From Vulcanimicrobiota bacterium (lineage in GTDB: Bacteria; Vulcanimicrobiota; Vulcanimicrobiia; Vulcanimicrobiales; Vulcanimicrobiaceae), in assembly GCA_963845455.1 (NCBI GenBank), contig CAWJSM010000001.1, positions 56,302-120,301 of the forward strand: a stretch of DNA of 64,000 nt, in the 5' to 3' direction. Positions 24,081-56,881 of the stretch are shown one piece after another. Position 1 is the first letter of the stretch, and each line of letters opens with the position of its first letter. A program made the position numbers and the translations under genes. The notes under the pieces were generated by a model, which saw only the letters and a list, made by a program, of their open reading frames with translations, was not told the origin of the DNA and ran no database searches.

Positions 24081-24217
24081 AGATGGTCCCTTCCCGCGCG
24101 GCCCGGCCGACTCCCTGGCCGGGGGGTCGGATGCCCAGGGCCCTTCCAAGCGGGACTGCCGGCGGCTGCGCGCGGGTACCAAAACACGACCACCATTCCT
24201 GAACGAGGACCTACCAA

Positions 24218-34308: not shown

Positions 34309-36114
34309 ATGGAACTACTTCGCTTTACCGGCCTCGAGCGGCATTTCGGCGCGAAGGAGGTCTTCCGCAATCTTTCCGGCGTCATCCGCGACAACGAGAA
34401 GATCGGTTTGGTCGGCCCGAACGGCGCCGGCAAATCGACGCTGGTGCGCTTGCTTGCGGGGATCGACCGCCCCGATGACGGCACCATTGCACGCGCGCGC
34501 GAAACGCGCTTCGGCTACCTCGCGCAAGACGCGGCCGAGAGCGGCCCGCAGACGCTGCGCGCGGCGTTCGACGAAGCGCTGACGCGCGGTTCGGCGCACG
34601 AGTGGGAGATGCGCGCGACGCTCAATCGCTTCAACTTCGCCGAGAGCGATCTCGAGCGGCCGCTGAGCGAGTTCTCCGGCGGACAGCGCACGCGCGCGCT
34701 GCTGGCGCGCACGCTGCTCGAAGAGCCCGACTGGCTGATTCTCGACGAGCCGACGAACCATCTGGATCTCGACACCGTGCGCTGGCTCGAAACGTTCGTC
34801 GCGCGCGATACGCGCACGTACGTGATCGTGTCGCACGACCGGTACTTTCTCGAGACGGTCTGCTCGTCGATCTGGGAGCTGGACGCGGGCGAGCTCGCCG
34901 AGTATGCGGTGACGCCGGGGAAGGCGTATACCGAATTCGTCGCGCAGCGCGCCGAGCGCCGCGCGCAGCAGCAGCGTGCCTACGATGCGGCGATGTCGGA
35001 GCGCGAGCGGCAGCGGGCGGTGATCGCGGAGCTGCGCACGCACGGTTCGCACAACTACTCGCACGTGCGTTCGCGCGAGAAGGCGCTGGATCGGGTCGAC
35101 GTCCTCGATGCGCCGCGCAAGGAGCGGCGTTCGATCTCCGTGGCGCTGACCGCGGCGCGCAAGGCGACGACCGGGATCGCGATCGAGCTGGTCAACGTGG
35201 CGAAGGCCTACACGGAGCCGCTGTTTGCGAACGTCAACGCGAAGTTCGCGCGCGGCGAGAGCGTAGCGATCGTGGGCCCCAACGGTGCGGGGAAGACGAC
35301 GCTCTTGCGCATCATCTCCGGCGACATGACGCCGGATAAGGGGAACGTGCGCTACGGCGTCGGTCTCACGACGGCAGCGTATTCGCAGAGTTCGGTCGAC
35401 GATCTGCCGGCCGGCATGTCGGCGGCGGACGCCGTGCAGCAGATGGGCGTCACCGGTGAGGAAGCGCGCTCGCTGCTCGGGCGCTTGAACCTCGGCGGCG
35501 ATGCGGTCGACAAGCCGGTGGAGGCGTTCAGCGGCGGCGAACGGCGGCGCATCATGCTGGCGCGGTTGATGGCGCAGCGCGCGGATTGTCTCTTTCTCGA
35601 TGAGCCGACGAACGACTTGGATATTCCCAGCCGCGAAGCGCTCGAAGATGTGCTCGCGTCCTACGACGGCGCGCTGTTCGTCGTGTCGCACGACCGGTAT
35701 TTGCTCAAGCGCCTGGCGGAACGCGTGATCGCGATTCGCGACGGGCACGCGACGATCGTCGACGGCGATTACGAGACCTACGAGCAGCGCCAGCACACGT
35801 TGCCGGCCGCGGCGACGTCGAGCGATGCGCGGCCGGGTGCGAAGGGCGGGCAGAACGGCAAGCGGGCGGCGCACGAGGCGAAGCTCGATGCGGGGCGGCG
35901 CAAGCGCGCCGTGCTCGATGCGGAGAAGCGCGTCGCGGATCTGGATGCGGAGAAGGCGCGGCTCGAGGCGCGCTTCGCGGCGTCGGATCTGTATGCGGAT
36001 CCGTCGGCCGTGATCACGCTGCAGCTCGAACTCGACCGCGTGCGGCTGGAGAGCGAGCGGGCGTTCGAAGCGTGGGAGCGGGCGACGGCTGCGCTCGAGG
36101 CGTTAGCCGGCTAA
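34309..36114 (+). CDS. ABC-F family ATPase (two NBDs, linker, C-terminal coiled coil)
   Basis: Intact 601 aa. GPNGAGKST / SGGQRTR and GPNGAGKTT / SGGERRR. No TM domain. Charged helical tail. Confidence 0.9.
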   Translation: MELLRFTGLERHFGAKEVFRNLSGVIRDNEKIGLVGPNGAGKSTLVRLLAGIDRPDDGTIARARETRFGYLAQDAAESGPQTLRAAFDEALTRGSAHEWEMRATLNRFNFAESDLERPLSEFSGGQRTRALLARTLLEEPDWLILDEPTNHLDLDTVRWLETFVARDTRTYVIVSHDRYFLETVCSSIWELDAGELAEYAVTPGKAYTEFVAQRAERRAQQQRAYDAAMSERERQRAVIAELRTHGSHNYSHVRSREKALDRVDVLDAPRKERRSISVALTAARKATTGIAIELVNVAKAYTEPLFANVNAKFARGESVAIVGPNGAGKTTLLRIISGDMTPDKGNVRYGVGLTTAAYSQSSVDDLPAGMSAADAVQQMGVTGEEARSLLGRLNLGGDAVDKPVEAFSGGERRRIMLARLMAQRADCLFLDEPTNDLDIPSREALEDVLASYDGALFVVSHDRYLLKRLAERVIAIRDGHATIVDGDYETYEQRQHTLPAAATSSDARPGAKGGQNGKRAAHEAKLDAGRRKRAVLDAEKRVADLDAEKARLEARFAASDLYADPSAVITLQLELDRVRLESERAFEAWERATAALEALAG

Positions 36115-39100: not shown

Positions 39101-39849
39101 TCTTCGGCGCGCTTGCGGGCGGTGACGTCGACGATCGAGGCGAGCACGTACTCACCGCGCGACGTCTTCAAGGGGCTGAGGCCGACCTCAATCGATACTT
39201 CGCGGCCGTCTTTGTGCAGGCCCCAGAATTCGCGGCGGGCGGTGCCGGGTTGCCCGAGCTGGTGGCCGTGTTCTGCGCGGTGGGCTTCGCGGAAACGCTC
39301 GGGAATCAACATTTCGATCGAGTTCTTCAAAAGCTCCGGGCGCAGGTAGCCGAACATCATCTCGAAGCGATTGTTCACGAGCGTGATGCGCCCGCCGGCG
39401 TCGGTTACGAGCATCGCGTCAGCCGAACCGTCGAGGACCAAACGCATCTGCTCTTCGCTGTGCGTGCGCTCTTCGGCGAGCAAGCGTTCCGAGATGTCGA
39501 CGATCGCCGCCAGAATGTAGGTTCCGCGGCGCGTTTGCACGGGGTTCAGGCCGATCTCAACCGGCACTTCGCTGCCGTCTTTGCGCAAGCCGAAGAGTTC
39601 GTGACGGGGATCCATCGGCCGGCCGGTCGGGGCCGCGAGGTACTCCGCGCGCAGGCCCGCATAGACGGCATGGAAGCGTTCCGGTACGAGCACCTTCGAA
39701 TCGCAGCCGATCATTTCATCGGCGTCATAACCGAAGACGGCTTTCGCATGCGTGTTCGCGAGCACGATCGTGCCGCGGCTGTCCCCGACCACGATGGCGA
39801 TCGGCGTCGCCTCGAGCACAACCCGGAGTTGTTCCTCTTCGTCGTCCAT
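36103..39849 (-). CDS. PAS-PAS-(GAF-like x3)-GGDEF(degenerate)-EAL c-di-GMP signalling protein
   Basis: Intact 1248 aa. Two PAS modules (aa ~5-245), three ~175-aa repeats (aa ~283-810), GGDEF-domain start HDVLTGLLSR but active-site motif RIEGDVF (37165-37185). EAL signatures EALIRW, DDFGTGYSS, EGVE and KIDRSF are all present. Confidence 0.9.
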   Translation of the reverse strand: MDDEEEQLRVVLEATPIAIVVGDSRGTIVLANTHAKAVFGYDADEMIGCDSKVLVPERFHAVYAGLRAEYLAAPTGRPMDPRHELFGLRKDGSEVPVEIGLNPVQTRRGTYILAAIVDISERLLAEERTHSEEQMRLVLDGSADAMLVTDAGGRITLVNNRFEMMFGYLRPELLKNSIEMLIPERFREAHRAEHGHQLGQPGTARREFWGLHKDGREVSIEVGLSPLKTSRGEYVLASIVDVTARKRAEEIRLADAAHAGEISALNAEKAIVESSLAGSERRVRRQSDRLASMWRIVNTPSLHGAELVEAMLREASTVIRPGQVYAGMLGHIDGSDFVLDAVAGQAGGTDAGAIERIFRNGQRVDVNETLLARNADAGRTQSWDDCQALPDLPARAREAGLRSQIATHFVANKTPFVLCLASMEPPSVVPFGPPDYEYIEVLASFFARHLEQERLEASLRTAEGRARQHAERLAALWQVANNPLLRGQDLLFSMLRQGAAALRSAQRFQGLLGRIEGDEVVVIGIGAEPGTEGAIANVHIGRRTPLDETLVPRASGTRAWDDLSTLGTVPPALAFLGWRSAITAQFTAGASQYWLIFGSSEPTATSFDEEDHAYLDVLASSFANQLQVTTLEGSLHAEVERSRRHIERLDALQSIINNPDLRHEELLQAMLGQAAAAIRPDQNFRGVLWFIEGSELTIKAVASSRPILDGFPPVGNSIPIAQTMIGPVIEAGRGTQSWNHINAGERSRLATRHGTQSLIVTTFRAGTTSWGLSFASSEATPEPIGSEDYAYIEVLASFFANHLQQRWQFERLEYQQAHDVLTGLLSRSQFRSQARAAAAHCRRFAIILVNIDAFREVNESRGHMIGDAVLVEVGNALRKRAIGDEIVGRIEGDVFGIYVPEPDSVNAVHNRALDYADVFATAFSTGDRAGTDLIARTGSLGIAVAPEDGTLIDAVLLRAGTALANAKTRGHGSVVFYEAGMEGDATRRSALLNEIAEALAKDQFVLYYQPHVEISTGRVTGCEALIRWDHPTRGLLLPSHFIPFAEANGAIANIDAWVMRNALAGANELAALRPGFRVFFNLSGRQAGNSKIIREFTTAARNGVSLANIGVEITESDAMRDVEATRHVCRALRRLNIRIAIDDFGTGYSSLSFLKRLPVDVVKIDRSFISGILSDPHDATIAETIIAITKNFGFDSLAEGVEDFAEADWLKKRACRYMQGFAICRPLALEAFKDWLAARAKREAPLAG

Positions 39850-39854: not shown

Positions 39855-41281
39855 CTAGACCAAGACCGGCGCGCTGCGGCGGGCAAGCTCGACGCTGTTC
39901 GTTGCTGATTCAGGCTGCGCAAATGCGGCGCGCGTGATCGCCACGAGGCCGATTGCGAGCCCCGCGATGACCGGAATGCGCAACCATTGCAGCAAGAGCG
40001 ACGGGCGCGCGAGCACTTCGCGCGAGAAGTCGCCCCAGCTGTTTTCGGCCAGCGCGCCGGGCGGGTAGGAATGCGCGACGAACGGCGTGTCCGGCGGACC
40101 GAATCCGGCCAGCGCCAGCGCCAAAACGGAAACGGCGATCAGCGCAGCGATCGCGGTGAGGACGAGTCCGCGCCGCGCACCCATCGTCGCGCGCGCGAAC
40201 GCGCCGACCAGGAACGGCGTGAAGCCGGTCATCACCGAGGCGCTGATCACGTTCCAGGGAATCATCACGAGCGTCACCGCGGTCGCCGTCAGGTTTCGTT
40301 GCCGCGGATACCGCGCGTAGATGAAGAGCAGCGCCGGAATGGCAATCGCGAGCTGTTGAAAGTGGACGTGGACGCCGCCGAACACGGCAAAAGCCGGCGG
40401 CAGCAAGACGAGGGTCGCGGCGTCGCCGGTCGCGCGCCACATCCGGACCGCGACGCTCACGCCTAAAGCCACCATTGCGGCGTACATCAATTCACCCCAG
40501 CGGACGGCCGACGACGGGTCGACGTTAAGCGACGTCAAGACCGAGGTCAAGCTGAATTGCCATTCGTAGGCGTTCGCGAGCGCGTGCGCCGGGATGACGT
40601 CGAACACGTATGCGACGCTCGTTTGAAATCCGACCGCGAGCACGCCGATGAACCACATCAGCAGGCCGCAGACGAGGATCGGCAGACGCGCCGGCTGCAC
40701 CGCGATGAGCAAGGCCAGCAGGACGGGCAGCGCGAGATGCGGTTCCGCAAGTGCGAACATCGCGCACGCGGACGCCGCGATCCAGCGGCCTTGGCGCGCC
40801 CAGACGGCACACGCCGCGAGCGCGAGAAAAACGAACGGCACGGGTTGGCCGAGGAAGTACGTTTGCAAGGCCGTGATCGCGGCGAAGGCGAGGTTGAGCC
40901 AGACGCTCGAGACACCGGTCGCGCGCGCGAACAGCACGACCGCCCCGCTCATGGCGGCAATCAAGAGCACGCCATACACGCTCGCGGCGATGGGGAACGG
41001 CAGCAGCGCGAGGGGCACGAAGAGCAACAGCGTCGCCGGCGGCAACGGCGCGGGCAACGTGACGGATGCGAGCGTGTTCAGCGGAACCGGCGGCCGCGCG
41101 CGCTGCTCGCAGGCGTGCTGCGGCTCCTCGAGGTAGGGATTCGCACCGTGCGCGATGCCGGCGCCCGCGCAATAAAAGGCGCGAAAATCACCCATCAGGT
41201 TGGCCGGGCCGGTTCGGCAATCATCGCCGCGAGCATCGCCGGCGCTAGTAACCAGGCGCCGATCTCCGTCAGTTTGCGCAC
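39855..41281 (-). pseudogene. polytopic membrane protein, DUF2029/GT87-like (GT-C fold) glycosyltransferase candidate (one frame change at the 5' end)
   Basis: The 446-aa ORF 39855-41195 starts MGDFRAFYCAGAGIAHGANPY.. (Asp-containing first loop typical of DUF2029 as I recall it), followed by about 10 hydrophobic helices. A first TM (VRKLTEIGAWLLAPAMLAAMIAEPARP, GTG 41281) lies one frame off. Shift near 41200. Confidence 0.5.
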
Positions 41282-41282: not shown

Positions 41283-41709
41283 TTATTGCGAGATGACCAT
41301 TTGCGAGCGGCTCGTCATGGGAATCGTCAGCAGCGAGACGAGCGGCGTGAGAAAATGAAACGAGTACGCGACGGAAACCGAAACGAGACAGCCGGGTGAG
41401 TTGTACGGGGCGATCGTCTCGTTGCAACCCGTGTTGCCGCCGGCGACACGTCGTCGTCACGGTCAATTTGACTGGCCGTAATCCCCCGCGACTGTCCCGT
41501 CACGTAGGTCTGGAGCGGATCCGGGCTTCCGCCCGCGCAGGATGCGATGCCGTTGACGATCGCATAGCGGCTCGCGAGGCGGGCACCGTTCGAGACGAGA
41601 TGGTAGGTATAGAGCGCGCGGCCAAGTCGATGATGCCGAGCAAGAGCATCAACGCCGCTAAACTCGCAACGGCGAACTCGGCCAGAACCTGGCCGCGCGA
41701 AGCGCTCAT
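41283..41709 (-). pseudogene. tadE: TadE/TadF-like pseudopilin 2 (at least two frame changes)
   Basis: ATG 41709: MSASRGQVLAEFAVASLAALMLLLGIIDL (TadE N-terminal motif). ..ALYTYHLVSNGARLASRYAIVNG.. and the tail ..CLVSVSVAYSFHFLTPLVSLLTIPMTSRSQMVISQ-stop are in other frames. Confidence 0.65.
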
Positions 41710-42157
41710 TGCACCACCCGCATCGTCGCTGCCGTTTGGATCGTGACCGAGCGCAAGCCGGCCGGCAGACGGCGCGTAGTTGAGCAGCGACGCTTCCGTT
41801 CCGGTGACGACCACCTTGACGTAGAAATTTTGGTGGTTGGTCGTGCAGGCGCCCACGAGGCCGCACGTCGAGGCCGTCAGATCTTCGCATTGGCAAAAGC
41901 TCGATGCGACGGCGCTCACGCCGGCCATGTTCGCATCGCTGGTCGCTGCCGTTTGCATCCCGGTGATATCCGCGGCCGTGGTGTGATTTTGCGCACCGTA
42001 CGCGATACCGGCGCGCGCGGCGCCCGCGACGGTGAGCGCGAGGTTGCCGGCCCGGCCGGCCTCGACCGACGCCGAGCAGCACGAGCAGCAGCAAGGGTGC
42101 GAGGATCACGAGTTCGGCCAGCGCCGCACCGGCAATGCGGCCTGCGTGCGTCGTCAT
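41706..42157 (-). pseudogene. tadE: TadE-like pseudopilin 1 (at least two frame changes)
   Basis: ATG 42157: MTTHAGRIAGAALAELVILAPLLLLVLLGV.., middle ..GMQTAATSDANMAGVSAVASSFCQCEDL.., tail ..LRSVTIQTAATMRVVQ-stop. ATGA junctions at both ends. Confidence 0.7.
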
Positions 42158-43349
42158 TGCACCAACGTTGCGTGCGCGAGTCCGGCGAATTGATTCGCCG
42201 CCGGCGGGACCGTGAGCGTACCGCCGAACACGTTCAAAACGTTGGCCACGAGCAGCGACCACGTGTTTTGCGCGCCGTCATTTTGCACCGTTGCCGTTGG
42301 GAAGTAGAGCATGACCGAGAGATCGACGTCACGGCACTGCGCTCATCGAAGATGGCGGTGTTGGCCGGATTCTGGTAGAGCACGATGCCGGCGTGTTGCC
42401 GGTAAGCGGTGCGCTGAGCGTGATGCTCGGCGATTGAATGGTGAGCGAGCCGCCGCCGGTGCCGTTGTAAAACGTTACGCCGGCGCCGGACACGGTGGCG
42501 CCGTAGACGTTCATTCCGTTATCGAATTCGTAGACGCCGGGCGCGAAGGTCAGCGTCGTTGCGCCCGAGACGGAGAGCTGCGTGCAGTACCGGCCCGGCT
42601 GGATCGTCACCGTCGGGCTGTACGCGGGCGTGGCGTTCAAGCAGGCCCGGAGTTCGGCGGGTTCGCCTTCAGGTACGCGCAACCCGCGATCGTCGGGCAC
42701 GGATCGGCGTTTGCGTGCGATCAGCGTCGGTTGCGCTTGCGGATAGCTTTGGCCGTTGTAGGCGTACGGGCCGATGACGTAGCCGATGAGGGCGGCCGTG
42801 ACCGTCGATCCCGGTACGACGAAACCGCCGTTGGACGAGAAGCCGCACGTCGTCGCGGTCATGTGCGTCGCACCGTTGGCTTGGATCGCCATCGCACCGC
42901 CGCTCAACGCGTACACGCACGTTTGGGGGGAGGACAGTTGTGCAACGGCGGTCGCGCTGATCCATTGCGGTGCAAGGCCGAATGCTGCGCCGAAGAATCG
43001 CGGACACCTTTTGGCTCACGGTCACTTGAACGGCCAAGACGTTGCCGATATAGCTACCGGTTAGCGGCGGGCTGCTCGCGGTGACGCCGACGGTCACGCC
43101 GCCGTTATCGGTAAAGCCGTTGGCCGCGGCGTCGTTTTTTGCCGCGGTGTTCCAATCGGCGAGAGCCGGATACTTGAGTTCGTCCGCGCCGGCGATTGCG
43201 GCCGCGTCGGCGGCCGTTTGCGCGAGGCGCTGCTGATATCGCCAGTAACCGACGTCGACCGCCATCGCCGCCATGCCGATCAGCACGACGAGCATCAGCG
43301 CGAAGACCGGCAGCAGCTGACCGCGCGCGGAGCCGCGTCCCGGCGTCAA
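42154..43349 (-). pseudogene. tadG: TadG-like pilus-assembly protein (at least three frame changes)
   Basis: TTG 43349 overlaps the secretin stop (TTGA). ..RGQLLPVFALMLVVLIGMAAMAVDVGYWRYQQRLAQTAADAAAIAGA.. (Tad/TadG N-terminal signature). The remainder is pieced from ORF 42329-42916 and the tail ..NQFAGLAHATLVQ-stop. Confidence 0.65.
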
Positions 43350-44792
43350 CGCGTTAGAATGGTCGGCGTCATGACGAACACGACGTCGGTCTTCGCGGTC
43401 TGATAATTGGTCGAGCGGAAAAGCGGGCCGAGGATCGGGAGATCGCCGAGAATCGGGATCTTCGTTGATCGTGCGCTGCTCGACGCGGCTCAACAGGCCG
43501 CCCATCACGATCGACTCGCCGTCTCTGGTGATCACGTCGGTCGAGAGTTTACTCGTCTTGAGGGCCGGGACCACGAAACCGTTGAGCGTGACGCCGTCGG
43601 AGAAATCGAGATCGGAGACTTCCGGCGCGATCAGCGTTTCGATATCGCCGTTGCCGAGGATCGTCGGCGTGATCTCGAGTTTGACGCCGTATTCTTTGTA
43701 ATCGATCGCGATCTGCTGCGGTCCGGTCGAGACCGGAATCGGAATTTGACCGCCGACGAGAAAATCGGCCTTGTGGCCCGGCAGCGTGACCAAGTCGGGC
43801 GCTGAGAGGATCTTCGCGTGGCCGCTCGTGATGACCAAATTCAAGGTCGGCGCGAGCGTCGTGGTGCGGAAGAAGGCCCAGGGTGAGGGCTTTGCCGATC
43901 GCACCGGCCGCTTCAACGATGGGAAAGATCGCGGCTCCGAGCGAGAACGTCGGCGCCGCGCCGGCCGCGGTGGGCTGATAGGTTGCGGCTTGCAGATCGA
44001 TGCCGAGATTCTTGAGCCCGGTGTCGTCGATTTCGAGAATGTAGACCTTCACGTCGATCTGGCTGGCCGATGCGGTTTGGAGCCGGTCGATCACCTTGCC
44101 GTCGAGCGAGCAAGATCGCCACCGAGTGCCTTGACGTTCGCAAGCACCATTTCTTCGGTCGTGCGATCGGGGACGTTTCCGCTGACGATGATATTACCGG
44201 TTGCGTCGCTCGCGACCGTGACGTTCGCCGTCGCGGCTTCCCGGCCAGCAGGTTCTGCAATCTCCCCATCGGACGGACCAGCGTTACCGCGTCGACGACC
44301 GTATACTTCGCCGCTGCGGCGAGCGGGCTGAAGCGGGCAGCGACCTCGGCGATCCGCGCAGATCGTCGCTGTCGGTTACGGTGCCGTTGAGGACGATCGA
44401 GGTTGCGAACGCCTCCACCCGCACGCCGGGAATCGCGATCGCCGAGGCGACCATGCGGCGCAGATTCTCGAGGCCTTGATCGGTCACCGTCGATCACGTA
44501 GTCGCGTCGACCCGTGCTCGGTCCACACGAACGAGCGTCGTGTTGCCGGCCGTCTTGCCGTTGACCACGATTTCGCTCGAACCGATCGGAACGATGCCGG
44601 CGATGCTGCCGTCACCGACCGCGACGCGGGTGAGACTCGGCGTCTGCATGACGATCGATTGACCCGTTCGCACCGTTAGGGTCGCAATCGGAGTTCGCAA
44701 CAGACGCTCAGCGGAGCTACTGCAATGGAGATCGCTGCGATAGCGACGCCGAGGGCCGCACGAAAAAGTGATGCAAAGGACTTCCTCTCTAT
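43346..44792 (-). pseudogene. cpaC: CpaC/RcpA-type secretin (at least four frame changes; start codon not resolved)
   Basis: Signal-like ..SLFRAALGVAIAAISIAVAPLSV. N-domain ..LTVRTGQSIVMQTPSLTRVAVGDGSIAGIVPIGSSEIVVNGKTAGNTTL... Secretin core ..[64 protein letters not shown]-stop. Confidence 0.8.
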
Positions 44793-45395
44793 GAGAAAGT
44801 GCCTACTGCGGCCAACGGCTTATGCCCACCGCTGGTAGTGCACGGCGTAGACGGACCGTGGACGCAGTGTCAATTTTGCCGGCGCGAGAGCCGTCGATGC
44901 GGCCGGCGCGGGTAGGATTGAGACCAACGATGCGATTCCTCAGCACCGGATCTATGCCATCTCAGTCGTCGCTACTTGCTCGCCGCTCATACCCACCGGG
45001 CGGGCATGAGCGGCGGCTGAAATGCCGGCGCTCGGAATACCGGTTCAACGTCACGGTATCGCGGTCATCGTGAAAGCGTTCGCTTCAGGGTAACGGTTGC
45101 CGGCGCGCCTCCACTCCAGGCCGTCCTCTACGCGGGGTTCGCGCCGGACCTACCCACGGTGCTCTTGACGCCGGCGGCCGCTCCCGACCGATGCCGGCGG
45201 CAACTTCAATGCGACCGTCATCCGATCGCCCCGGCCTCTTTCAGCGGCGCGATCATCACGGTGTTCGTGCAAACCTTAGCGGCCGCTGAACCCTCGGCCG
45301 CGGCAGCATCAACCATTGCTGATCCCGCTCGGCGTCACGGGCGACCCGGATCCCTAACCCCGCCGCACTTTCGAGCGTAAGGAGATCCATTCATC
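44793..45395. promoter_or_regulatory. long divergent control region between the cpaC operon and the flp operon
   Basis: About 600 bp with no convincing coding frame on either strand. TTGACG at about 45174. SD AAGGAGA (45379-45385) 10 nt before the flp ATG. Confidence 0.4.
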
Positions 45396-45559
45396 ATGAC
45401 GACCACCATCCGCAACTATTTTCGTCTGACGAACAAGGCCAAGGACTGGCCGAATACGGTTTGATTCTCGGCCTCATCGCGGTCGTTTGCGTCGTTGCCG
45501 TCGTCGCGCTGCAAGTCCAGATCACCGCGATCTTGACCAAGGTAGCCAATGCCCTGTGA
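45396..45559 (+). pseudogene. flp: Flp-family pilin 1 (one frame change)
   Basis: MTTTIRNYFRL.. then, one frame off, DEQGQGLAEYGLILGLIAVVCVVAVVALQVQITAILTKVANAL-stop. Flp processing motif G/LAEYGLIL. Length 164 nt, one base short of a multiple of three. Not in the supplied ORF track. Confidence 0.7.
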
Positions 45560-45713
45560 ATCTCGAGCACGGTCTTGCGCCGATGAATCCGGCCAAGGCC
45601 TTGGAGAGTACGGGCTCATCCTCGCACTCATCGCGGCAGTTTGTGCTGCGGTCGTCGTCATCATCGGCGTAAACATCGGGCGGACGCTCACGCACGTCGG
45701 CACCAGTATCTAA
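45549..45713 (+). CDS. flp: Flp-family pilin 2
   Basis: 54 codons, below the ORF-track cutoff: MPCESRARSCADESGQGLGEYGLILALIAAVCAAVVVIIGVNIGRTLTHVGTSI. Motif G/LGEYGLIL. The ATG overlaps the end of flp1. Confidence 0.75.
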   Translation: MPCESRARSCADESGQGLGEYGLILALIAAVCAAVVVIIGVNIGRTLTHVGTSI

Positions 45714-45724
45714 CGGCCGGCACA

Positions 45725-46215
45725 ACGTGTCTGCTCGCCCTGATCGTCCTCGTCGCGGGCACGTTGACCGCGGCCGTCGATCGATGTCCGCCGCCGCAAG
45801 ATTCCGAACCCCCTGACGGCGGCTATGGCGCTTGCCGCCATCGCCGTGCACGCGGCCGGCGGTGTGGCCGCGTTCGATGCTGGCGCTTGCGGTCATGCTG
45901 GCGGCGTTCGCCCTCGGGGCGCGTCGCATTTTCAGCGGCTGGTTCGGCGGCGGCGACGTGAAGCTCGATCGCGGCCGCGTGCGGGCTCGTCAGTTATCCG
46001 GGCTGCATGCTGGCTCGTCGTTTCGAGTCTCATCTGCGGGCGCGGTCCTTGCCGTCGTCCAAGCTGCCGCGCAAGGCCGTCTCGTGACGTCGTTCGCAAC
46101 GCTGCGACGCTTGGCGCTCACCGGCGCGGCTCCGCCGGCGCCGACGCTGCTACCGTACGGCGTCGCGATCGCCGGCGGCAGCACCGCGTACGCGTCTCGA
46201 CGCTGCTTCCCCTGA
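45725..46215 (+). pseudogene. cpaA: A24-family prepilin peptidase, CpaA/TadV type, copy 1 (several frame changes; start approximate)
   Basis: ..LLALIVLVAGTLTAAVD(L)RRRKIPNPLTAAMALAAIAV.. (first Asp box) and ..FGGGDVKL.. (second Asp box), then ..LLPYGVAIAGGS.., scattered over three frames. Confidence 0.7.
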
Positions 46216-46225
46216 GGTTCGCCCT

Positions 46226-47082
46226 ATGAAAACCCGCCGCATCCCGCTTGATCATCGGTCTGGTCCTCGCACTCGGTACGGGCGTGCTGTTGCTGGGTTA
46301 TCTGACGTCGTTGCGGCCGAGCACGTCGCCGGGACAAACGAAGGGGGTGCTCGTTGCGACGCACGACATCCCGGCCCGCTCGGCGGTACGGTGCCGATCT
46401 CTTCACGGTCGAACAGCGTCTCGCGACGCAAGTCGACTCCGATGCCATCGGCGATCCGAAAGCACTCGCCGGCAATTTACACGCTCGTCGCAATTCCGGC
46501 CGGCAGCGTCGCCACGCGTTCGAAGATCGGCTTGGCTTCCGCCGCGACGCTCCCGGCGCGATTGCCGATCGGCATGCGCGCTGCGAGCATCGCGATCGAT
46601 AACGTCAAGGGCGTCGCCGGCCTCATCACGCCGGGTGACCGCGTCGACGTGATCGCGGTCCCGGCCGGCGGTCGCGGGCGAAACGCCGCGCGGTTCAGCG
46701 ATCGTGCGCGGTGCGATCGTCCTCGCGATGGGAACCGACGTTGCGACCACGACCGCCGCGGCTCCCGGACTGCTCGGCGGGCCGCCGCCCGCCTCACGAC
46801 GATCACGCTGGCGCTGACGCCGAACCAGGTCGACGTGCTCGCCGGCGCCGACATGAACAGCACGCTGCGTTGTCGCTGCGCAATCCGAAAGAGCCGATCG
46901 CCGAATCTTCCCTCCGAAGTGCTGAAGCTGGCGACGTGGCGGCCCGCCCGTCAACGTCCGTCGCCGCGCCGCGGTTGCGCCCGGCCCGCCGGCGCGGCCC
47001 CGGCGGCCGAATTCCGCGTCGCGCGGCGTCATGCTGATCGACGGCGACCAAGTCGACCGCCGGGGCTGCGGCACCGCAATGA
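46226..47082 (+). pseudogene. cpaB: CpaB/RcpC Flp pilus assembly protein (several frame changes)
   Basis: ATG 46226. TM ..LIIGLVLALGTGVLLLGYL... ..VLVATHDIPA.. ; ..AIPAGSVATRSKIG.. ; ..LPIGMRAASIAIDNVKGVAGLITPGDRVDVI.. ; ..ITLALTPNQVDVLAGADMNSTLRLSLRNP... The inferred stop overlaps the next ATG (ATGA 47079-47082). Confidence 0.7.
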
Positions 47083-47808
47083 GCCAGCGCGTTTTCGTCG
47101 TCGTCGGCGCGAAAGGCGGCGTCGGCGCGACGACGCTCGCCATCAAACTGGTTGCACAGTTTCCCGCGCTCGCCGAACGGATGATCGTCGACGCGTGATC
47201 TCGCGGCAAGCGAAGCGTCGCCGTCTGGTACGACCTCAGCGACGAACTCGATGTCAGCGCGCGTGATCGGTTCGGCGACCATCGCAACGGTGAAGGACGG
47301 AACGACGGTCCTGGAGTCGCGCGCACGTACGAAGACGGGCTCAATTCAAACGACGGGTTCGATCTCGCGTTCGATCGCGGGTCTGTCCGCCGACGCGCTC
47401 GTGGTGGTCGACGCGCCGCAGCCGTTGGCGGCGACCGTCCGGCCGTTCGTCGTGCGCGCCACGCAAGATCATCGTGGTCACCGAACCACGCGCATGGGCG
47501 TCGGCGTCGCCGGCTCGGTGCTCGCGTCCCTCGCCCGCGCCGGCATCCCGGGGTCCCGCATCGTGCTCGCGACCGTCGACATCAGTCGGCACCGGGGAGC
47601 TCACACGCGATCGGACGTGGAGCAGTCGCTCGGGCTGCCGGTGAGCGTCGAGCTCCCGCACGAGCGCGATCGCCGCTACGAGGGGTTCTTCGACGGCTTC
47701 GTCACGATGCTCACGCGGCGCCGCCAGCGCGATCGACGATCCGCAACCACTCCATCGGAAAAGCCGGTCTTCGAACGCCGGGCCGAACGCGGCAGGCCGT
47801 TCGGGTGA
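47079..47808 (+). pseudogene. cpaE: TadZ/CpaE-like ParA/MinD-fold protein, copy 1 (several frame changes)
   Basis: MSQRVFVVVGAKGGVGATTLAIKL.. (deviant Walker A without the second Lys), ..IVDADLAGKRSVAVWYDL.., ..ALVVVDAPQPLAATVRPFVVRAT... No receiver domain. GTGA junction with copy 2. Confidence 0.7.
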
Positions 47809-48540
47809 ACCGGCGCGTCTTCGTCGTCGTCGGCGCGAAGGGCGGCGTCGGCGCGACCACGATCGCGGTCAAGCTGATCGAAGAGTTGCCGGCCGCGGGG
47901 AACGCGTGATCGTCGACGCCGATCTGGCCGGAAGACGAAGTCTCGCGGTCTGGTACGACCTCAGCGTCGATCTCGACGTCGGTCGCGTCATCGGTGCACC
48001 GGCGTGGCAAAGCGAAGGTCGGCCAGCTCGTGATGGAACTCGCGCGGACCTACGAGGACGGCTTCATCCAGACCGCGGAATCGGTCGTACGCTCGATCGA
48101 ACGGTTGCCGGAACAGGCCTTCATCGTCGTCGATGCGCCGCAGCCGTTTGCCGCGACGGTCCGGCCGTTCATGGCCCGGGCGTCCAAAATCATCTTGATC
48201 ACCGAACCGACGCTGATGGGCATCGGCGCGGCGCGGGCGATGCTCTCGGCCATGGATCGCTTCGGCGTTCCGCTGTCGCGCCTCGCGTTCGTCCTCAACG
48301 AAGTCCGCGAATGCGGGAGACTTGCGGCGCAGCGACATCGAACACGCCCTGCGCATCGCGGTCGAGCGCCGACTTGCCGAACGATCGCGACCGGAAGTTC
48401 GGGAAGACTTCGCGGGCTTCGTCGACGCTGCTGGCGGCGTCGCCGCCGTCGAAATGCTCGACAACTTACGCCAGTCGACGGAAAAGCCGATCGGCGACCG
48501 GCGCGAGCCGCGCGCCTGCGGCTGGCGACTGCCGTCGCGG
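47805..48540 (+). pseudogene. cpaE: TadZ/CpaE-like ParA/MinD-fold protein, copy 2 (several frame changes; 3' end approximate)
   Basis: VNRRVFVVVGAKGGVGATTIAVKL.., ..VIVDADLAGRRSLAVWYDL.., ..AFIVVDAPQPFAATVRPFMARASKIILITEPTLMGIGAARAM... Colinear with copy 1 at both protein and DNA level. Confidence 0.65.
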
Positions 48541-49895
48541 TCCCCGCCTCCGGCGACGACGCCGCGCCGCCCTCACGATCTTCGGCCGCGTCGACGACCT
48601 CAAAACAGAGCTCCACGCGCTGATCTTGACCCGGATCGATTTTTTCACCGCCGGGCGCGCGGACACGGACGCGAAGAAACACGCCGAACTGCGCGATCAG
48701 ATCGAGAAGATCGCCACGGAATTCCTCGCCGCGAGAAGCGACGTCAAGACGGCGGAAGACGCGGCCCGCATCCGGCGCGAGGTGATCGAAGAGGCGCTCG
48801 GCCTCGGCCCGCTCGAGAGCTTGCTGCACGAAGACGGACGTCACGGAAATCATGGTCAACGGACACGAAAACGTCTTCGTCGAGCGCAACGGCCGCGTCG
48901 AACGCACCACCAAACGATTCGTCGACAATCGCCAGGTGCGGCTCGTCATCGAACGCATCATCGCCCCGATCGGCCGGCGCCTCGATGAATCGAGCCCGAT
49001 GGTCGACGCGCGCCTGCCCGACGGCTCGCGCGTCAACGCCGTCATCGAGCCGCTCTCGATCGACGGGCCGACGCTCACGATCCGGCGTTTCGGGACGAAG
49101 CGTCTGCACGTCGAAGACCTGATCGAAGCTCGGCGCGATGACGCCGCCCGTGATGGATTTGCTGCGCGCCGCCGTCGAGGCGCGCCAGAACATTCTCGTC
49201 ACCGGCGGCACCGGCTCCGGCAAGACCACGCTGCTCAACGTGCTGTCGGGTTTCATCCCGCGCGCGGAACGCATCGTGACGATCGAAGACGCCGCGGAGC
49301 TGAAGCTCGATCAGCCGCACGTCGTGCGGCTCGAAACCCGTCCGCCGAACATCGAGGGCACCGGCGGCGTCACGATCCGCGATCTCGTGCGCAACGCGCT
49401 GCGCATGCGGCCCGACCGCATCATCATCGGCGAGTGCCGCGGCGGCGAAGCGCTCGACATGCTGCAGGCGATGAACACGGGGCACGACGGCTCGCTCGAC
49501 GACGATCCACGCCAACTCCCCGCGCGACGCGCTCTCGCGCGTCGAAACCATGGTCATGATGGCGGGCTACGAGCTTCCGCTGCGCGCGATCCGCCAGCAG
49601 ACCGCGAGCGCGATCGACCTCGTCATCCAAGTCGCGCGGCTGCGCGACGGCGCCGCGGAGCGTGATCGGCGTCAGCGAGGTCATCGGCATGGAGGGCGAC
49701 ATCGATCACGATGCAGGAGATCGTCAAGTACCAGCAACGCGGCTGAGCCCGCAAGGCAAGGTCATCGGAGACTTCGAGCCGACGGGCGTGCAGCCGATGT
49801 GCCTGAAGCGTTTCGAAGAGCTGGGCGTGCACTTCGACCCCGTCATCTTCAACTCGATGCCGGCGGGACAGCCGGAGGTCGCATGGTCGCGCTAG
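48540..49895 (+). pseudogene. cpaF: CpaF/TadA secretion ATPase (at least five frame changes; 5' end approximate)
   Basis: ..[31 protein letters not shown].., Walker [13 protein letters not shown], ..[32 protein letters not shown].., ..[18 protein letters not shown]... Pieces are spread over all three frames. TAG at 49893-49895. Confidence 0.88.
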
Positions 49896-50748
49896 CGCCG
49901 ATTGCGATCATCTTCGGTATCCTCGGAACGCTGGCGTTCGTCATCGCCTCGTTCTGGGATCAGATCGCCCTAGAGCATTACAACGTTCGGCGACGGCTTT
50001 CGGTCCGACCTCGAACTCGCCGGAATGCGCATCGCGCCGGAGAGGTATGGCCTGGCGATGATCGGGATCGGCGCTCGGAGTGTGGACCGCCTCGGTCCTG
50101 CTGCTGCGGCCCGGCTTGCTCGCCGGAATCGTCTTGCTGCTCGTCTTCGGCAGGTGCGACGGTGTATGGTGCCGGCTGGTACATGCGGATGCGGCGCAAA
50201 GGGCGCGTCCGGAAGTTTCAGGATCAACTGGAACAGGCACTGCGGTCGCTTGCCGGCGGGGTTCGCGTCGGACTCGGCATACGCCAAGCGTTCGTCATGA
50301 CGGCCGATGAGAGCCGCGACCCCTTGCGAGCGGAGTTCACGCGCGTCGTCGGTCTCAACAACGTCGGGCGTGAGCATTCTGGACGCCTTCGACCAGATGG
50401 CCGCTCGTATGACGAACCCGGAGACCGCCATGCTCGCGCGCGTGCTGCGCGTTCAATCCCAGACGGGCGGCAACCTCGGCAGCGTCCTCGTCGGCCTGGC
50501 GGATACGATTCGCGACCGGCGCCGTCTTTTGCGCCGCGTCAGCGCGATCACCGCTCAGGGCCGCGCGACGGGTTGGCTGCTGGGTCTTCTCCCGGTCGCG
50601 CTCGGCGCATTTCTCGCCGTGGCCGAGCCGACGCTGCGCGAATCGATGCTCTTCACGCCGGTCGGCCAGCTCTTTCTCGCGGCTCGCGCTGGGTCTCGAC
50701 GCACTCTCGATTTTCACCATCATGAAGATCGTGCAGATCGATCCATGA
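49883..50748 (+). pseudogene. tadB: TadB (T2SSF-family inner-membrane platform protein) (several frame changes)
   Basis: ATG 49883 after GGAGG. MVALAPIAIIFGILGTLAFVIASF... ..FQDQLEQALRSLAGGVRVGLGIRQAF.. ..ILDAFDQMAARM.. ..VLRVQSQTGGNLGSVLVGLADTIRDR... ATGA junction with tadC. Confidence 0.75.
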
Positions 50749-51599
50749 CCGACGTTGCTCCCTTCGTGATCGCCGCTCATCGGCGCGCTCTCGATTTTCC
50801 TCATCGCGATTTCGATGACTCCGTCGAAGAACGCCCTCAGATCGCGGATCCGAAAGCTGGAACGCACCGACGAGCATGCTTCGCAGCACACCGTCATCAT
50901 CAACCAAATCGTCAGCGCCGAGCACAAATCGACGCTGCAGAACCGCCTGAACGAGGCCGGGTGGTACGAGGTGACGCCGGCGGCCCTGGCCCTCCGGGGT
51001 CTTGGTGCGTACGGCATCGGCATCAGCGTCGCCGCGCTGCTCATCATCTTCCTCCACAACAACGTGCTCGGCGGGACGATCGGCGTCCTCATCGCGCTGA
51101 TCGGCTGGCGCGTCCCGAGCATCTTCCTCTCGCGCGCCATCAAGGTCCGCAAGGAATCGATCGGGCGCGCTTGCCGGAGTTCCTCGATCTACTCTCGACC
51201 ACCGGTTCAGGCGGGCCTCGTCGCTCAATGCGGCGATGATCGAGTCGGCTCGGCGCGAGCGAGCGGCCCCCTGCATGCCGAACTGACGCTCGACGCTCTC
51301 CGAAATTCGGCTCGGCCGCTCGCGCGAGGAAGCATTGAACGCGATGGCCGACCGCGTGAACGAAAACTCGTTGACCATGACGGTTTCCGCGATCGTGCAG
51401 GCCGAGAAGCTCGGTTCGGACCTCGCGTCCATCCTGCACGAACTCGCCAAGGAGTCGCGCGACCGGCGCTGGATGCGGGCGGAAGAGAAGGCGGCGCAGC
51501 TGCCGATCAAGATGATCATTCCGATGGCGCTGTTCATGATTCCCTCGCTGTACCTGATGATCTTCGGTCCCGTCATCGCCCAATTCGTCGAGCAAGTAG
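50745..51599 (+). pseudogene. tadC: TadC (T2SSF-family platform protein) (several frame changes; 3' end uncertain)
   Basis: MTDVAPFVIAA.., ..LPEFLDLLSTTVQAGLSLNAAM.., ..EALNAMADRVNENSLTMTVSAIVQAEKLGSDLASILHELAKESRDRRWMRAEEKAAQLPIKMIIPMALFMIPSLYLMIFGPVI... Confidence 0.75.
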
Positions 51600-52225
51600 T
51601 GTTGCTGCTGCTACTCTCGGCCTTCGTCGGCGCGCTGCTCTTCGGCGCGGCCGGCTTGCCGGCAGTCGTGGCCGAATGGTGGTACGGCTCCGTCGAGCCG
51701 GAAGCCGACGGACCTCCGCCGCTTGCCGTGCCGGCTGGATCTTCGTCGTCGTTCCCGCGTGCATCGGCTCGGCCGTCGGAATCCACGGCGCCGAGCCCGC
51801 GCGCTGGCGATTCTAGTCCTCGCCGTGTTGGCGTTGAGCGTTTGCGCGGCCACCGATGCGCGCACCGGTATGCTCCCGGATCTCTTCACGCTCGGCCCGC
51901 TGGCCGCGCTGCTCGCACTCGCGCTGCCGCACCGTGATTGGCTGCCGCTCGCGGGCGCGCTGTTCGCCTTGCTGCCGTTTGCGGCCCGGCCGCGTTTGCC
52001 TCACGCGGCCGTGGCATGGGCTGGGGAGACGTCAAGCTCGCCGCATTCGGCGGTGCCCTCGTCGGAATCGGCGGCATCACGTTCGCCGTTACGCTTGCCG
52101 CGGCCGCGGCCTACTTCGTGTTCGCGGTAACCGGGCGCGCGCGCCGGCCGATCGCGTTCGGTCCCTACCTCGCGGTCGCGATCGGAGCGTTTCTGCTATT
52201 CGGCAGCGCGTTGCCTAGCCTATGA
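51599..52225 (+). pseudogene. A24-family prepilin peptidase, copy 2 (frame changes; start approximate)
   Basis: ..LAILVLAVLALSVCAATDARTGMLPDLFTLGPLAALL.. (first Asp box) and ..GMGWGDVKLAAFGGALVGIGG..RPIAFGPYLAVAIGAFLLF.. (second Asp box). It follows tadC directly. Confidence 0.65.
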
Positions 52226-52635
52226 TTCTACGCAATTCCACGACGAATGCGATCGTCGCGACGCGCATAAAGCGGTTGACCGGGCTCGTCGAGCGGGCCG
52301 TCGGTTTGCTTGGACGCGCGCGCATCGGGCGCGACGAAGGCGTGTGGTTGTCAGCGAGTCGCGCGATACACACGGTGGGGATGCGGCAGGCCATCGATGT
52401 GATGTTCGTCGACGGCGCGGGCGTCGTGCTGCGCATTTGCCGCGACGTGCAGCCCAATTGCCTGATGCTGGTCTGCCGCCGGGCGCGGGCCGTGGTGGAA
52501 CTGGGCGGCGGGGCGCTCGACGCGGGCGACGTCACGCTCGGCGACCGGCTCGAACTCATTGCCGAGGGATCCGCGCAGCAGTTGCGTGCGGACGGTTTCG
52601 AACAGGTCGGCGCACGCGATAACGTGCGCTGCTAG
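52222..52635 (+). CDS. DUF192-family protein (last gene of the flp operon; 3' end probably over-extended)
   Basis: ATGA junction with the preceding gene. ..LTGLVERAVGLLGRARIGRDEGVWLSASRAIHTVGMRQAIDVMFVDGAGVVLRI..AVVELGGGALDAGDVTLGDRLEL.. fits my recollection of DUF192. The final ~25 codons overlap the convergent regulator. Confidence 0.55.
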   Translation: MILRNSTTNAIVATRIKRLTGLVERAVGLLGRARIGRDEGVWLSASRAIHTVGMRQAIDVMFVDGAGVVLRICRDVQPNCLMLVCRRARAVVELGGGALDAGDVTLGDRLELIAEGSAQQLRADGFEQVGARDNVRC

Positions 52636-53952
52636 TTGCGGTTCGGCCGCTTCGGAGGCCAGCAACGCGCCGGCGTGGAGGCGTTCGGCCTGCCGGTAGT
52701 GCTCGCGAGCGGCGAGCCGATCACCGTTCGCGTACTCGGTTGCCGCGCATTCGGCATATTCCCGGAACAAGCGCACATCGATCGAGACCCAGTCGAGGTC
52801 GAGCGCGATCGAGTTGCCGACGCTGATGTACCGGCCGGCTTCGCGTCCCGCGGCCTCGGCCAGCGCGCGGCGCAGCCGCCATAACGTGCTGCGGAGGCCT
52901 TGCGATGCGACCGCCGGAGACGCGTCCGGCCAGAACGTGAGCAGCAACTCGGCGCGCGTAACCGCGGCGTCCGCCGCCAAGGCAATGTAGGTGAGGACGT
53001 TTTGATCGCGGCGGCGATCGAAGGTGACCGATCGCTGCGCCACGCGGCAGGAGAAGCGGCCGAGCAGCGTGATGACGAGCCGCCCATGCAGATTCTCAGC
53101 GGGCGCGGCGTCCGGCCGTTCGCCGCCGATTTGGGCGAATAAGCGATACGGTCGGAAACTCGGGCGCATGCGAACGATCGGATAACCGATGGCCTCGAGC
53201 CGCTCGAGAACGCGTTGCGAGGCCGGATCGTCCAGTGACCGGAGTGCCGCTACGAACGCCTCGGTCGATCGGGTATCGTGGTGCTGCGCGGCGACCAGCT
53301 CGATGACCATATGGCCGTTGCGCTCGCGCCAGATCTCAAACGCTCCGCGCAGGCGACGCCCCTCGCGCGCGGCGTCACGGATGATCCAAGCAACGATCAG
53401 CGGCCATCCGTCGGTGTCGTACTTGAGCTGCTCGACGTCCATCTGATCGCATTCAACGCCATGCGCGTTCGCAAGATCGGCGATTTCGCTCGAACTGAAT
53501 GAAAGCAATGACGAGTCGACGACCGCCGCCAGGCCGCGGGCCACCATCGCTTGAGCGTGCATCTGCGTGCGCGAAGATCCGGCCAGCAAATAGTGGCTGC
53601 CGTACGGCCAGTTAGCCTCGATGATTTCGAAGAGCGCTTCGCTTCCGGCCGGCGAGAGTTGGTCGAATTGATCGATCAAGGTCAAACCGACGCTCGTCGG
53701 CGCACCAAGACCCGCCACGACCTGCAGGCGCGAGGCATGGGGCGGCAGCCTGACGACGTTGACGCGCCGGTCCTGCATGGCAAACTGCCGCAGGGCCGTC
53801 GATTTGCCGCCGCCGTGCGGCGCACAGATCATCCGGACCGGCGCAAAGCTCGATCGCGTAAGGAGCTCGAGGACTCGCGGCCTGAGGATCTCAATGCCAA
53901 GTTCCCGGCGCAGTGTAAGTGCCGGCGCGCTCGATAGTCGCTGCTCTCGCAA
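52351..53952 (-). CDS. P-loop NTPase + winged-helix + BTAD (SARP/AfsR-like) transcriptional regulator
   Basis: TTG 53952. Walker A ..MICAPHGGGKSTALRQF... wHTH ..ITLLGRFSCRVAQRSVTFDRRRDQNVLTYIALAADAAVTRAELLLTFWPD..LRSTLWRLRRAL... BTAD start ..DVRLFREYAE... The last ~70-95 codons overlap DUF192 antisense and look non-native (alternative-frame TGA at 52566-52568). Confidence 0.7.
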   Translation of the reverse strand: MREQRLSSAPALTLRRELGIEILRPRVLELLTRSSFAPVRMICAPHGGGKSTALRQFAMQDRRVNVVRLPPHASRLQVVAGLGAPTSVGLTLIDQFDQLSPAGSEALFEIIEANWPYGSHYLLAGSSRTQMHAQAMVARGLAAVVDSSLLSFSSSEIADLANAHGVECDQMDVEQLKYDTDGWPLIVAWIIRDAAREGRRLRGAFEIWRERNGHMVIELVAAQHHDTRSTEAFVAALRSLDDPASQRVLERLEAIGYPIVRMRPSFRPYRLFAQIGGERPDAAPAENLHGRLVITLLGRFSCRVAQRSVTFDRRRDQNVLTYIALAADAAVTRAELLLTFWPDASPAVASQGLRSTLWRLRRALAEAAGREAGRYISVGNSIALDLDWVSIDVRLFREYAECAATEYANGDRLAAREHYRQAERLHAGALLASEAAEPQLAAHVIACADLFETVRTQLLRGSLGNEFEPVAERDVARVERPAAQFHHGPRPAADQHQAIGLHVAANAQHDARAVDEHHIDGLPHPHRVYRATR

Positions 53953-56802: not shown

Positions 56803-56876
56803 GCGGGTGTGATGTAATGGTAGCCTGCGACCTTCCCAAGGTTGACGCGCGGGTTCGATTCCCGCCACCCGCTCCA
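56803..56876 (+). tRNA. tRNA-Gly (anticodon CCC)
   Basis: Acceptor GCGGGTG/CACCCGC, anticodon arm CGACC-TTCCCAA-GGTTG, T arm GCGGG-TTCGATT-CCCGC, encoded CCA. 74 nt. One U-C mismatch in the D stem. Confidence 0.9.
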
Positions 56877-56881
56877 GGATC

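Follow-up and report, generated by a model that had tools for sequence, protein, structure and literature searches.

The window analysed here, a stretch of 64,000 nucleotides (nt) from a Vulcanimicrobiota bacterium (contig CAWJSM010000001.1 of assembly GCA_963845455.1, positions 56,302 to 120,301; G+C ~65%), carries the genes of a Tad (Flp) pilus between positions 39855 and 52635, in two divergent sets interrupted by many frame breaks. Plain open reading frame (ORF) finding in 41-53 kb returns only short overlapping fragments, and the codon-position GC signal there switches phase every few hundred bases or less. Read in three frames, the Tad proteins are recognisable and continue from one frame into the next, CpaF over at least five frame segments. 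Tblastn high-scoring segment pairs ran through the frame changes with diluted identity, and a codon-phase hidden Markov model was too coarse for shifts ~120 nt apart. Frames were corrected by frameshift-aware protein-to-DNA dynamic programming, in which each protein of a related locus, L001, was aligned with the window DNA, and the corrected proteins were searched against Pfam and NCBIfam with curated cutoffs. L001 and L002 are the close relatives, contigs that encode a CpaF of ~695 amino acids (aa).

After correction, the minus-strand set reads secretin, TadG, TadE, TadE, GT87:

43346..44776, minus strand: CpaC/RcpA secretin, start TTG at 44776; 10 frameshifts; Pfam Secretin 3.5e-41, T2SS-T3SS_pil_N 6e-12
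42154..43349, minus strand: TadG-like large minor pilin; 5 frameshifts; Pfam Tad 2.2e-11, Tad_C 2.3e-06
41706..42157, minus strand: TadE-like minor pilin (pseudopilin) b; 2 frameshifts; Pfam TadE 1.4e-08; ATGA junction at 41706-09
41283..41709, minus strand: TadE-like minor pilin (pseudopilin) a; 3 frameshifts; Pfam TadE 4.6e-09 for the corrected protein
39855..41236, minus strand: GT87 (PF09594, formerly DUF2029) polytopic GT-C-type glycosyltransferase; Pfam GT87 4.3e-08, 33.6 bits against a cutoff of 25

The plus-strand set opens with a small secreted protein and runs through flp, flp, A24, CpaB/RcpC, TadZ-like, (TadZ-like)CpaF, TadB, TadC and A24 to DUF192:

44930..45357 (approximate), plus strand: small secreted protein ('hyp133'), Sec signal peptide and beta-rich domain present, lipobox absent; ~6 frameshifts
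45396..45559, plus strand: flp1 pilin, 53 aa, processing motif G/QGLAEY; 2 frameshifts near the 5' end
45549..45713, plus strand: flp2 pilin, 54 aa as it stands; Flp_Fap 2.8e-04; motif GQGLGEY
45710..46229 (start approximate), plus strand: A24 prepilin peptidase 1 (TadV/CpaA-like), both catalytic Asp motifs; 8 frameshifts; Peptidase_A24 3.3e-13
46226..47082, plus strand: CpaB/RcpC; 9 frameshifts; Pfam RcpC 4.3e-20; NCBIfam TIGR03177 pilus_cpaB 126 bits against a cutoff of 71
47079..47808, plus strand: free-standing TadZ-like ParA/MinD-type protein without an atypical receiver domain (ARD), ~243 aa, motif AKGGVGAT; 7 frameshifts
47805..49895, plus strand: TadZ-like::CpaF fusion ATPase ('TadZA'-type), ~695 aa; 15 frameshifts, no stop after correction
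49883..50748, plus strand: TadB platform protein; 5 frameshifts; Pfam T2SSF 2.6e-15, above cutoff
50745..51602, plus strand: TadC platform protein; 6 frameshifts; Pfam T2SSF 6.3e-20, above cutoff
51599..52225, plus strand: A24 prepilin peptidase 2, extended N-terminally by ~70 aa, both Asp motifs present; 3 frameshifts, the final one at ~51985; Peptidase_A24 3e-09
52222..52635, plus strand: DUF192 (PF02643, COG1430) protein, 137 aa, ORF intact; Pfam DUF192 1e-11, 45.3 bits against a cutoff of 27

Two genes on the minus strand flank these sets:

36103..39849, minus strand: PAS-PAS-GAF-like, GGDEF, EAL protein, 1248 aa, ORF intact; Pfam EAL 3.7e-71, GGDEF 6e-27, PAS
52351..53952, minus strand: putative regulator, 533 aa, ORF intact, with weak Trans_reg_C and BTAD-like matches; convergent overlap with the DUF192 gene

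All corrected products match the families expected of a Tad system, Flp and TadZ below the curated cutoffs, and these matches speak for the identification. Frame correction and family profiles, the check proposed in a preliminary description made from the letters of the window and its ORFs, returned TadE twice, Tad/Tad_C, Secretin, Peptidase_A24 twice, RcpC, T2SSE, T2SSF twice, DUF192 and GT87; the TadE, Tad/Tad_C and Peptidase_A24 matches all exceed their cutoffs. The complete Tad/Flp locus that it had described, with two divergent and tightly coupled operons, is borne out: the gene sets lie where it had placed them, and the seven 4-nt junctions that it had read (ATGA, ATGA, TTGA, ATGA, GTGA, ATGA and ATGA) are exact, with the same overlaps in intact relatives. 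Its gene list did not include the small secreted protein of the plus set or the PAS-GGDEF-EAL gene of the minus strand. Both flp products are 53-54 aa long and have the GQGLAEY/GQGLGEY motif and a hydrophobic core; residues 11-53 of flp1 are 100% identical to the Flp of L001, and the flp2 ORF is kept in both L001 and L002, though uncalled there.

Could the locus encode another type IV filament machine, such as a type II secretion system, a type IVa pilus, a Com pilus or an archaellum-like apparatus? T2SSE and T2SSF domains are common to all such machines, and the ATPase of the window scores against VirB11, TrbB and FlaI models as well. The best NCBIfam model for this ATPase is however the TadA family (3.4e-103; 345 bits, just under the cutoff of 373), and CpaB lies above its equivalog cutoff. 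The locus has RcpC, TadE, Tad/Tad_C and 53-aa Flp-type pilins with G-x4-EY, its T2SSF family is represented by a pair of short proteins, TadB and TadC, instead of a single PilC/GspF, and the A24 peptidases have no methyltransferase domain. We consider a non-Tad machine extremely improbable.

Searches for other elements gave little. Rfam matched nothing in 35-55 kb, a sigma-70-like promoter was sought between the divergent operons without success, and no TadD/CpaD/RcpB lipoprotein was found in 36-54 kb, where the only leftover ORF is the small secreted protein, which has neither a lipobox nor a family match. Like the other recurrent proteins without family, 'hyp133' has no Pfam match; it is the first gene of the plus operon in the Eremiobacterota relatives too, distant loci included.

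The preliminary description had noted the frame breaks and set them aside. They are real in the sequence, yet they are the most anomalous property of the locus and are best explained as sequence error. A three-way MAFFT nucleotide alignment of the window, L001 and L002, which defines window-specific indels, contains 91 that shift the frame between 41214 and 51983 (10.8 kb), or ~1 per 120 nt, and none in 39900-41199 or 52001-53900. By frameshift-aware alignment at least 82 frameshifts fall inside coding sequence, with 2-15 per Tad gene, and all Tad genes are recovered at full length. There is no credible frameshift in the DUF192 gene, the PAS-GGDEF-EAL gene or the 533-aa neighbour, and one in GT87, at codon 8: a 1-nt deletion at 41214 removes the first ~14 codons, leaving an uncorrected ORF at 39855-41195. 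The indels are mostly of 1 bp (43 one-base insertions vs 28 one-base deletions), their spacing is Poisson-like (mean 120 nt, coefficient of variation 0.98), the bases gained or lost occur in homopolymers at no more than the chance rate, and no excess of substitutions accompanies them. Both limits of the patch lie inside genes, one at codon 8 of GT87 and the other midway through the second A24 gene, so that gene and operon bounds are not followed. Nor are frame breaks special to the Tad locus, as three other genes of the window are also split:

59772-61800, plus strand: recG, in six frame segments, with wedge, DEAD, Helicase_C and RecG_dom3_C in different frames
59109-59754, plus strand: hisIE, with PRA-CH and PRA-PH in different frames and one frameshift implied at ~59420-59440
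1587-2824, plus strand: major facilitator superfamily (MFS) transporter, split over two frames near 2.2 kb

The recG gene holds at least five frameshifts (~60420, 60520, 60670, 60845 and 61210) within ~0.8 kb; the 650 nt at its start and the 600 nt at its end are free of breaks.

Two explanations of these breaks have to be weighed. The locus might be a genuinely decayed pseudogene cluster in a lineage that has lost its Tad pilus, all ~90 indels being real mutations. Every Tad gene is indeed broken, between two and 15 times; the dense patch roughly coincides with the two operons and leaves the PAS-GGDEF-EAL gene, the body of GT87, DUF192 and the regulator intact; and damage to recG, hisIE and the MFS gene could occur under genome-wide reductive evolution. 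Against this, selection on the Tad genes is not relaxed: over 3,299 Tad codons the branch dN/dS (nonsynonymous to synonymous substitution ratio) is 0.227 for the window, compared with 0.188 and 0.246 in intact relatives. The corrected CpaF, despite 15 frameshifts, deviates at only one of 209 columns conserved at >=97% among 98 full-length homologues, which themselves deviate at 1.4 on average. We found no convincing substitution-derived stop codon in ~3,600 codons; the few apparent stops abut indels and reflect placement or insertion/deletion pairs, and the one apparent stop in the free-standing TadZ-like gene is best read as such a pair. Neither is the indel spectrum like that of natural bacterial decay, being almost entirely of 1 bp, with insertions exceeding deletions, no homopolymer bias and Poisson-like spacing, and the limits of both the Tad and the recG patches cut across genes. 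On the indel spectrum and the selection tests, decay of this kind is rejected as unlikely, and a very recent inactivation specific to the Tad locus keeps, in strictness, a small place beside it.

Sequence error accounts for these observations better. Single-base indels that are random and patchy, come without substitutions, ignore gene bounds and occur in housekeeping genes too have the look of residual long-read error, and the indel pattern would be in keeping with a long-read patch of low coverage or without polishing. Judged from the DNA itself, the ~90 frame breaks are most likely patchy errors in the deposited sequence, and the real locus is probably intact. Automated annotation of the record would misreport the Tad system as fragmented or absent, and recG and hisIE likewise.

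The gene complement can be compared among four samples: the close relatives L001 and L002; the more distant Eremiobacterota loci L003 and L083-85; the further loci L086-90, which with the window, L001 and L002 form what we call the window's subclade; and 79 Tad loci from outside Eremiobacterota. A contig scan with the fused CpaF as query, dominated by generic CpaF motifs, yielded a single Eremiobacterota locus and served as this cross-phylum sample. In L001 and L002 the gene order is identical to that of the window, the ORFs are intact and most junctions are 4-nt overlaps:

Minus strand: secretin (476 aa), TadG (393), TadE (149), TadE (140), GT87 (440), then PAS-GGDEF-EAL
Plus strand, first part: 133-aa protein, Flp (53), A24 (171), RcpC/CpaB (283), 245-aa protein, CpaF (696)
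Plus strand, second part: T2SSF (286), T2SSF (284), A24 (206), DUF192 (131), then a convergent gene of ~440-510 aa

The distant loci keep the small secreted protein, one to three flp genes, A24 and CpaB, followed directly by TadZ::CpaF, and they also keep TadB, TadC, the second A24, DUF192 and a secretin operon with GT87. L086-90 retain the core as well. In every Eremiobacterota locus fetched GT87 adjoins the secretin operon and DUF192 follows tadC or the second A24 gene. GT87 occurs in none of the 79 loci from other phyla, and a match of the second A24 type occurs in two. DUF192 is found at tadC or immediately after it in 23 of the 79, including Acidobacteriota, Chloroflexota, Bacillota, Verrucomicrobiota and Omnitrophota:

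DUF192 after tadC, first 12 loci: L005, L010, L012, L016, L019, L020, L023, L025, L033, L037, L039, L040
DUF192 after tadC, other 11 loci: L042, L043, L048, L049, L052, L056, L061, L062, L068, L077, L080

These comparisons bear on the claim that the locus is a one-off combination, a singular Tad locus peculiar to this genome and perhaps a new kind of Tad system. The departures from the textbook loci of Aggregatibacter and Caulobacter on which that claim drew do hold, there being no TadD/RcpB/CpaD at the locus, a TadZ without a receiver domain, two A24 peptidases, and DUF192 and GT87 inside the operons. Moreover, the literature searched contained no account of a Tad locus in Eremiobacterota and no link between DUF192 and Flp pili. 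Synteny nevertheless recovers the same architecture in every Eremiobacterota locus fetched, DUF192 follows tadC in other phyla as well, TadZ::ATPase fusions occur in nine of the 79 other loci (Bdellovibrionota, Omnitrophota, WOR-3 and a "Deltaproteobacteria" metagenome-assembled genome, MAG) and have been described in Bdellovibrio (bioRxiv 10.64898/2026.07.08.737194), and a ParA-only TadZ-like protein without ARD has a solved structure, 3EA0. A unique architecture is accordingly rejected on synteny, the claim being largely refuted by the Eremiobacterota comparison, and we regard a singular locus as very improbable. The preliminary description had itself named routine occurrence in a well-studied clade as what would tell against it. 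Routine is essentially what the arrangement proves to be, albeit in a phylum, Eremiobacterota, that is not well studied.

The part of the gene order that requires revision is the TadZ region. A run of three genes, tadZ - tadZ - cpaF, had been proposed; the second TadZ and CpaF instead form one ~695-aa frame, 47805-49895, as in all relatives. The fused protein matches Pfam T2SSE (8.4e-65) behind an N-terminal CbiA/ParA region, has the motifs KGGVGAT at residue 12 and GGTGSGKTT at residue 467, and retains the CpaF Walker A, Walker B and His box intact. Stitched together, it is 83-90% identical to ~695-aa CpaF proteins from Eremiobacterota, Vulcanimicrobiaceae, Velthaea and Elarobacter MAGs, in which a ParA/CbiA-type domain precedes T2SSE in a single intact ORF. 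The fusion is present in nine of nine Eremiobacterota loci covering cpaF. On this sequence evidence, TadZ::CpaF fusion motors are the rule in Eremiobacterota and not confined to Bdellovibrio.

A duplication of TadZ stands only in part, in that a second TadZ-like unit does exist, but as the N-domain of CpaF beside one free-standing paralogue rather than as two genes. The free-standing gene, placed between cpaB and cpaF (245 aa in relatives), occurs only in the window's subclade. Its product shares 52-59% identity with the N-domain of CpaF from the same lineage (47805-48560 in the window) and is therefore a subclade-specific paralogue that arose by duplication of this domain. Its orthologues are 62-68% identical, compared with 75-80% for the fused domain, so that the duplicate evolves faster than its parent. 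Both units have the K/RGGxGxS/T motif, and a profile of the Eremiobacterota TadZ domain matches PDB 3EA0 (1.7e-08), followed by MinD, FleN and MipZ.

We conclude with good confidence that the region is a standard Tad (type IVc, Flp) pilus locus of Candidatus Eremiobacterota whose frame breaks are most likely sequence errors. It is complete in design and represents the ordinary arrangement of the phylum, which as a whole is a modest, so far undescribed version of a system that is well known. Several observations weigh against this conclusion. Flp_Fap was matched by both pilins (flp1 5.2e-05, 23.4 bits; flp2 21.0 bits), each under the Pfam gathering score of 32.2, and both TadZ units have only sub-threshold matches to CbiA, ParA, MinD and Ssd/CpaE_hom_Actino, so that for these two families the profile check is less decisive than for the others. 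The indel density of the Tad patch, 8.4 per kb, is far above that of the rest of the window, and the patch roughly equals the locus. Four intact window proteins (1248, 533, 601 and 137 aa) have no exact database match; a metagenome scan with a window-specific TadZ1 peptide gave 0 matches; and a scan with a clade-specific peptide gave five loci, the closest DNA found showing only ~75% nucleotide identity and hence no conspecific sequence. The attribution to error draws on internal evidence. Finally, the roles proposed below for GT87, DUF192, the second peptidase and the small secreted protein come solely from gene context.

From what is known of the families, the A24 aspartyl peptidases would cleave the two Flp prepilins, both TadE proteins and TadG at G/xxxxE(Y/F/L), and the pilins would then be polymerised on an inner-membrane platform of TadB and TadC. 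The CpaF ATPase would power this platform, its N-terminal ARD-less ParA/MinD-like TadZ domain probably positioning, tethering or recruiting the motor, and the fibre would leave through the CpaC secretin, with CpaB/RcpC in the periplasm. More speculatively, the TadZ domain, whose P-loop is lysine-less, may bind ATP without hydrolysing it. Gene context likewise invites the speculation that the second A24 peptidase shares labour between pilin classes, that GT87 glycosylates pilins or a pilus-associated or surface glycan, and that DUF192 is an unrecognised accessory factor of Tad. The EAL protein and its SARP-like counterpart at the other flank may, again speculatively, regulate expression through cyclic di-GMP (c-di-GMP).

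The Tad locus of Aggregatibacter actinomycetemcomitans has the order flp1-flp2-tadV-rcpCAB-tadZABCDEFG, and that of Caulobacter crescentus is pilA-cpaA-F. With these the window shares short Flp-type pilins (G/xxxxEY), an A24 peptidase that has no methyltransferase domain, RcpC/CpaB, a secretin, CpaF/TadA, the TadB and TadC pair, TadE/TadF/TadG minor pilins, a putative ParA/MinD-like TadZ/CpaE function and tight operon coupling. It differs from them in its split into two divergent operons, the secretin and the minor pilins being encoded on the other strand; in having at the locus no TadD/CpaD/RcpB lipoprotein, which is accessory and not universal; in a TadZ that has no atypical receiver domain, is fused to the ATPase and is accompanied by a free-standing paralogue; and in having a second A24, DUF192, GT87, the small secreted protein and the EAL protein inside or flush with the operons.

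Nearer parallels exist for individual components. In the "TadZA" of Bdellovibrio bacteriovorus, TadA is fused to a ParA/MinD-like TadZ that has no ARD and bears a K/RGGxGxS/T motif (bioRxiv 10.64898/2026.07.08.737194). The window's fusion is likewise a single polypeptide in which a linker connects an N-terminal ARD-less TadZ region, bearing a Walker-A-like K/RGGxGxS/T motif, to a TadA/CpaF ATPase at the C-terminus. The N-domains are however too divergent for phmmer to link, the Eremiobacterota motif is KGGVGA(T/S), without the second lysine of KGGVGKS, no partner of the RomR type is known for the window's fusion, and Bdellovibrio has no tad-linked prepilin peptidase where the window locus has two. 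Among structures, the best match over the full length of the TadZ-like domain is PDB 3EA0 ('ATPase, ParA family', 245 aa; positions 3-205 vs 4-219), which has in common with this domain a stand-alone ParA-type size, the absence of a receiver domain and a deviant AKGGxGxS P-loop, the similarity being remote. Both TadZ units also match, weakly (2.6e-05 and 1.8e-05), the Ssd/CpaE-like TadZ of actinobacterial and Gram-positive Tad systems (TIGR03815, CpaE_hom_Actino), their scores of 23-24 bits lying far under the cutoff of 154. Those loci too are without TadD and RcpB, but the window locus differs from them in its secretin and its diderm organism. TfpW of Pseudomonas is a GT-C-type pilin glycosylation enzyme of type IVa pili. 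The likeness to GT87 is one of analogy only, a polytopic GT-C-fold glycosyltransferase in a pilus gene cluster, as the window's enzyme is of another family, GT87 (PimE-like).

Eremiobacterota is a diderm phylum with one cultured species, for which a diderm envelope and type IVa pili only are reported (PMC9758169). A tentative further proposal, which we hold as possible rather than probable, is that its members have a distinct, undescribed Tad subtype, marked by a TadZ without receiver domain and with a lysine-less P-loop that is permanently joined to CpaF, an A24-DUF192 pair closing the operon and a GT87 glycan module, with DUF192 as a widespread accessory of Tad machines in many phyla. If this were true, the coupling of a GT87 module, with or without acyltransferase, to the operon of secretin and minor pilins would point to a Tad fibre that is glycosylated or to an adhesin linked to the pilus. 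The gene sets of the distant loci are of interest here. L083 and L085 have two GT87 genes each, and in L083-L085 an Acyl_transf_3 gene and a gene for a 470-510-aa protein without family match lie beside GT87. This set resembles a glycan-modification module, though it could equally be a surface-polysaccharide module. The glycan-type regions of these secretin operons are as follows:

L083: 692-6117
L085: 1-6152
L084: 760-3346 and 16128-18652

The analysis thus offers three modest leads, namely the fusion motors, the partnership of DUF192 with tadC across phyla, and a GT-C glycosyltransferase tied to the secretin operon in Eremiobacterota, none of which alters the picture of how Tad pili work. 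As a separate observation, the TadG and TadE genes of L083 lie ~5 kb beyond the assembly operon.

The flanking genes recur in relatives as well. The EAL protein gene (36103-39849) is directly downstream of GT87 and co-oriented with it, and L001 and L002 have the same neighbour with a 4-nt overlap; a PAS-GGDEF-EAL gene flanks the Tad locus in L085 too. The GGDEF domain in the window is degenerate (EGDVF) and the EAL, DDFGTG and EGVE motifs are intact, the residues suggesting that the product is probably a c-di-GMP phosphodiesterase or sensor. Homologues of the 533-aa regulator flank the Tad locus in L001, L002, L003, L083 and L085. The convergent overlap of DUF192 (plus strand) and this regulator (minus strand), 52351-52635, measures 285 nt, compared with 64-83 nt in relatives.

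Elsewhere in the window, two further genes are candidates for being broken:

16794-17743, minus strand: sulfatase, matching only profile positions 1-102 of 301 and truncated near 17.0 kb
22209-24227, minus strand: thiamine pyrophosphate (TPP)-enzyme ORF, 673 aa, with N and M domains and no match to the C-terminal TPP domain

Between 9522 and 15186 there are several Vgb_lyase/beta-propeller-type ORFs on both strands, one with an N-terminal CarboxypepD_reg. The plus-strand pieces 9522-10556 and 10300-11208 match parts of one family of this type and may be another split gene. Downstream of the Tad locus, an intact 494-aa CHASE3-SpoIIE (PP2C-type phosphatase) sensor protein is encoded at 56842-58326 on the plus strand.

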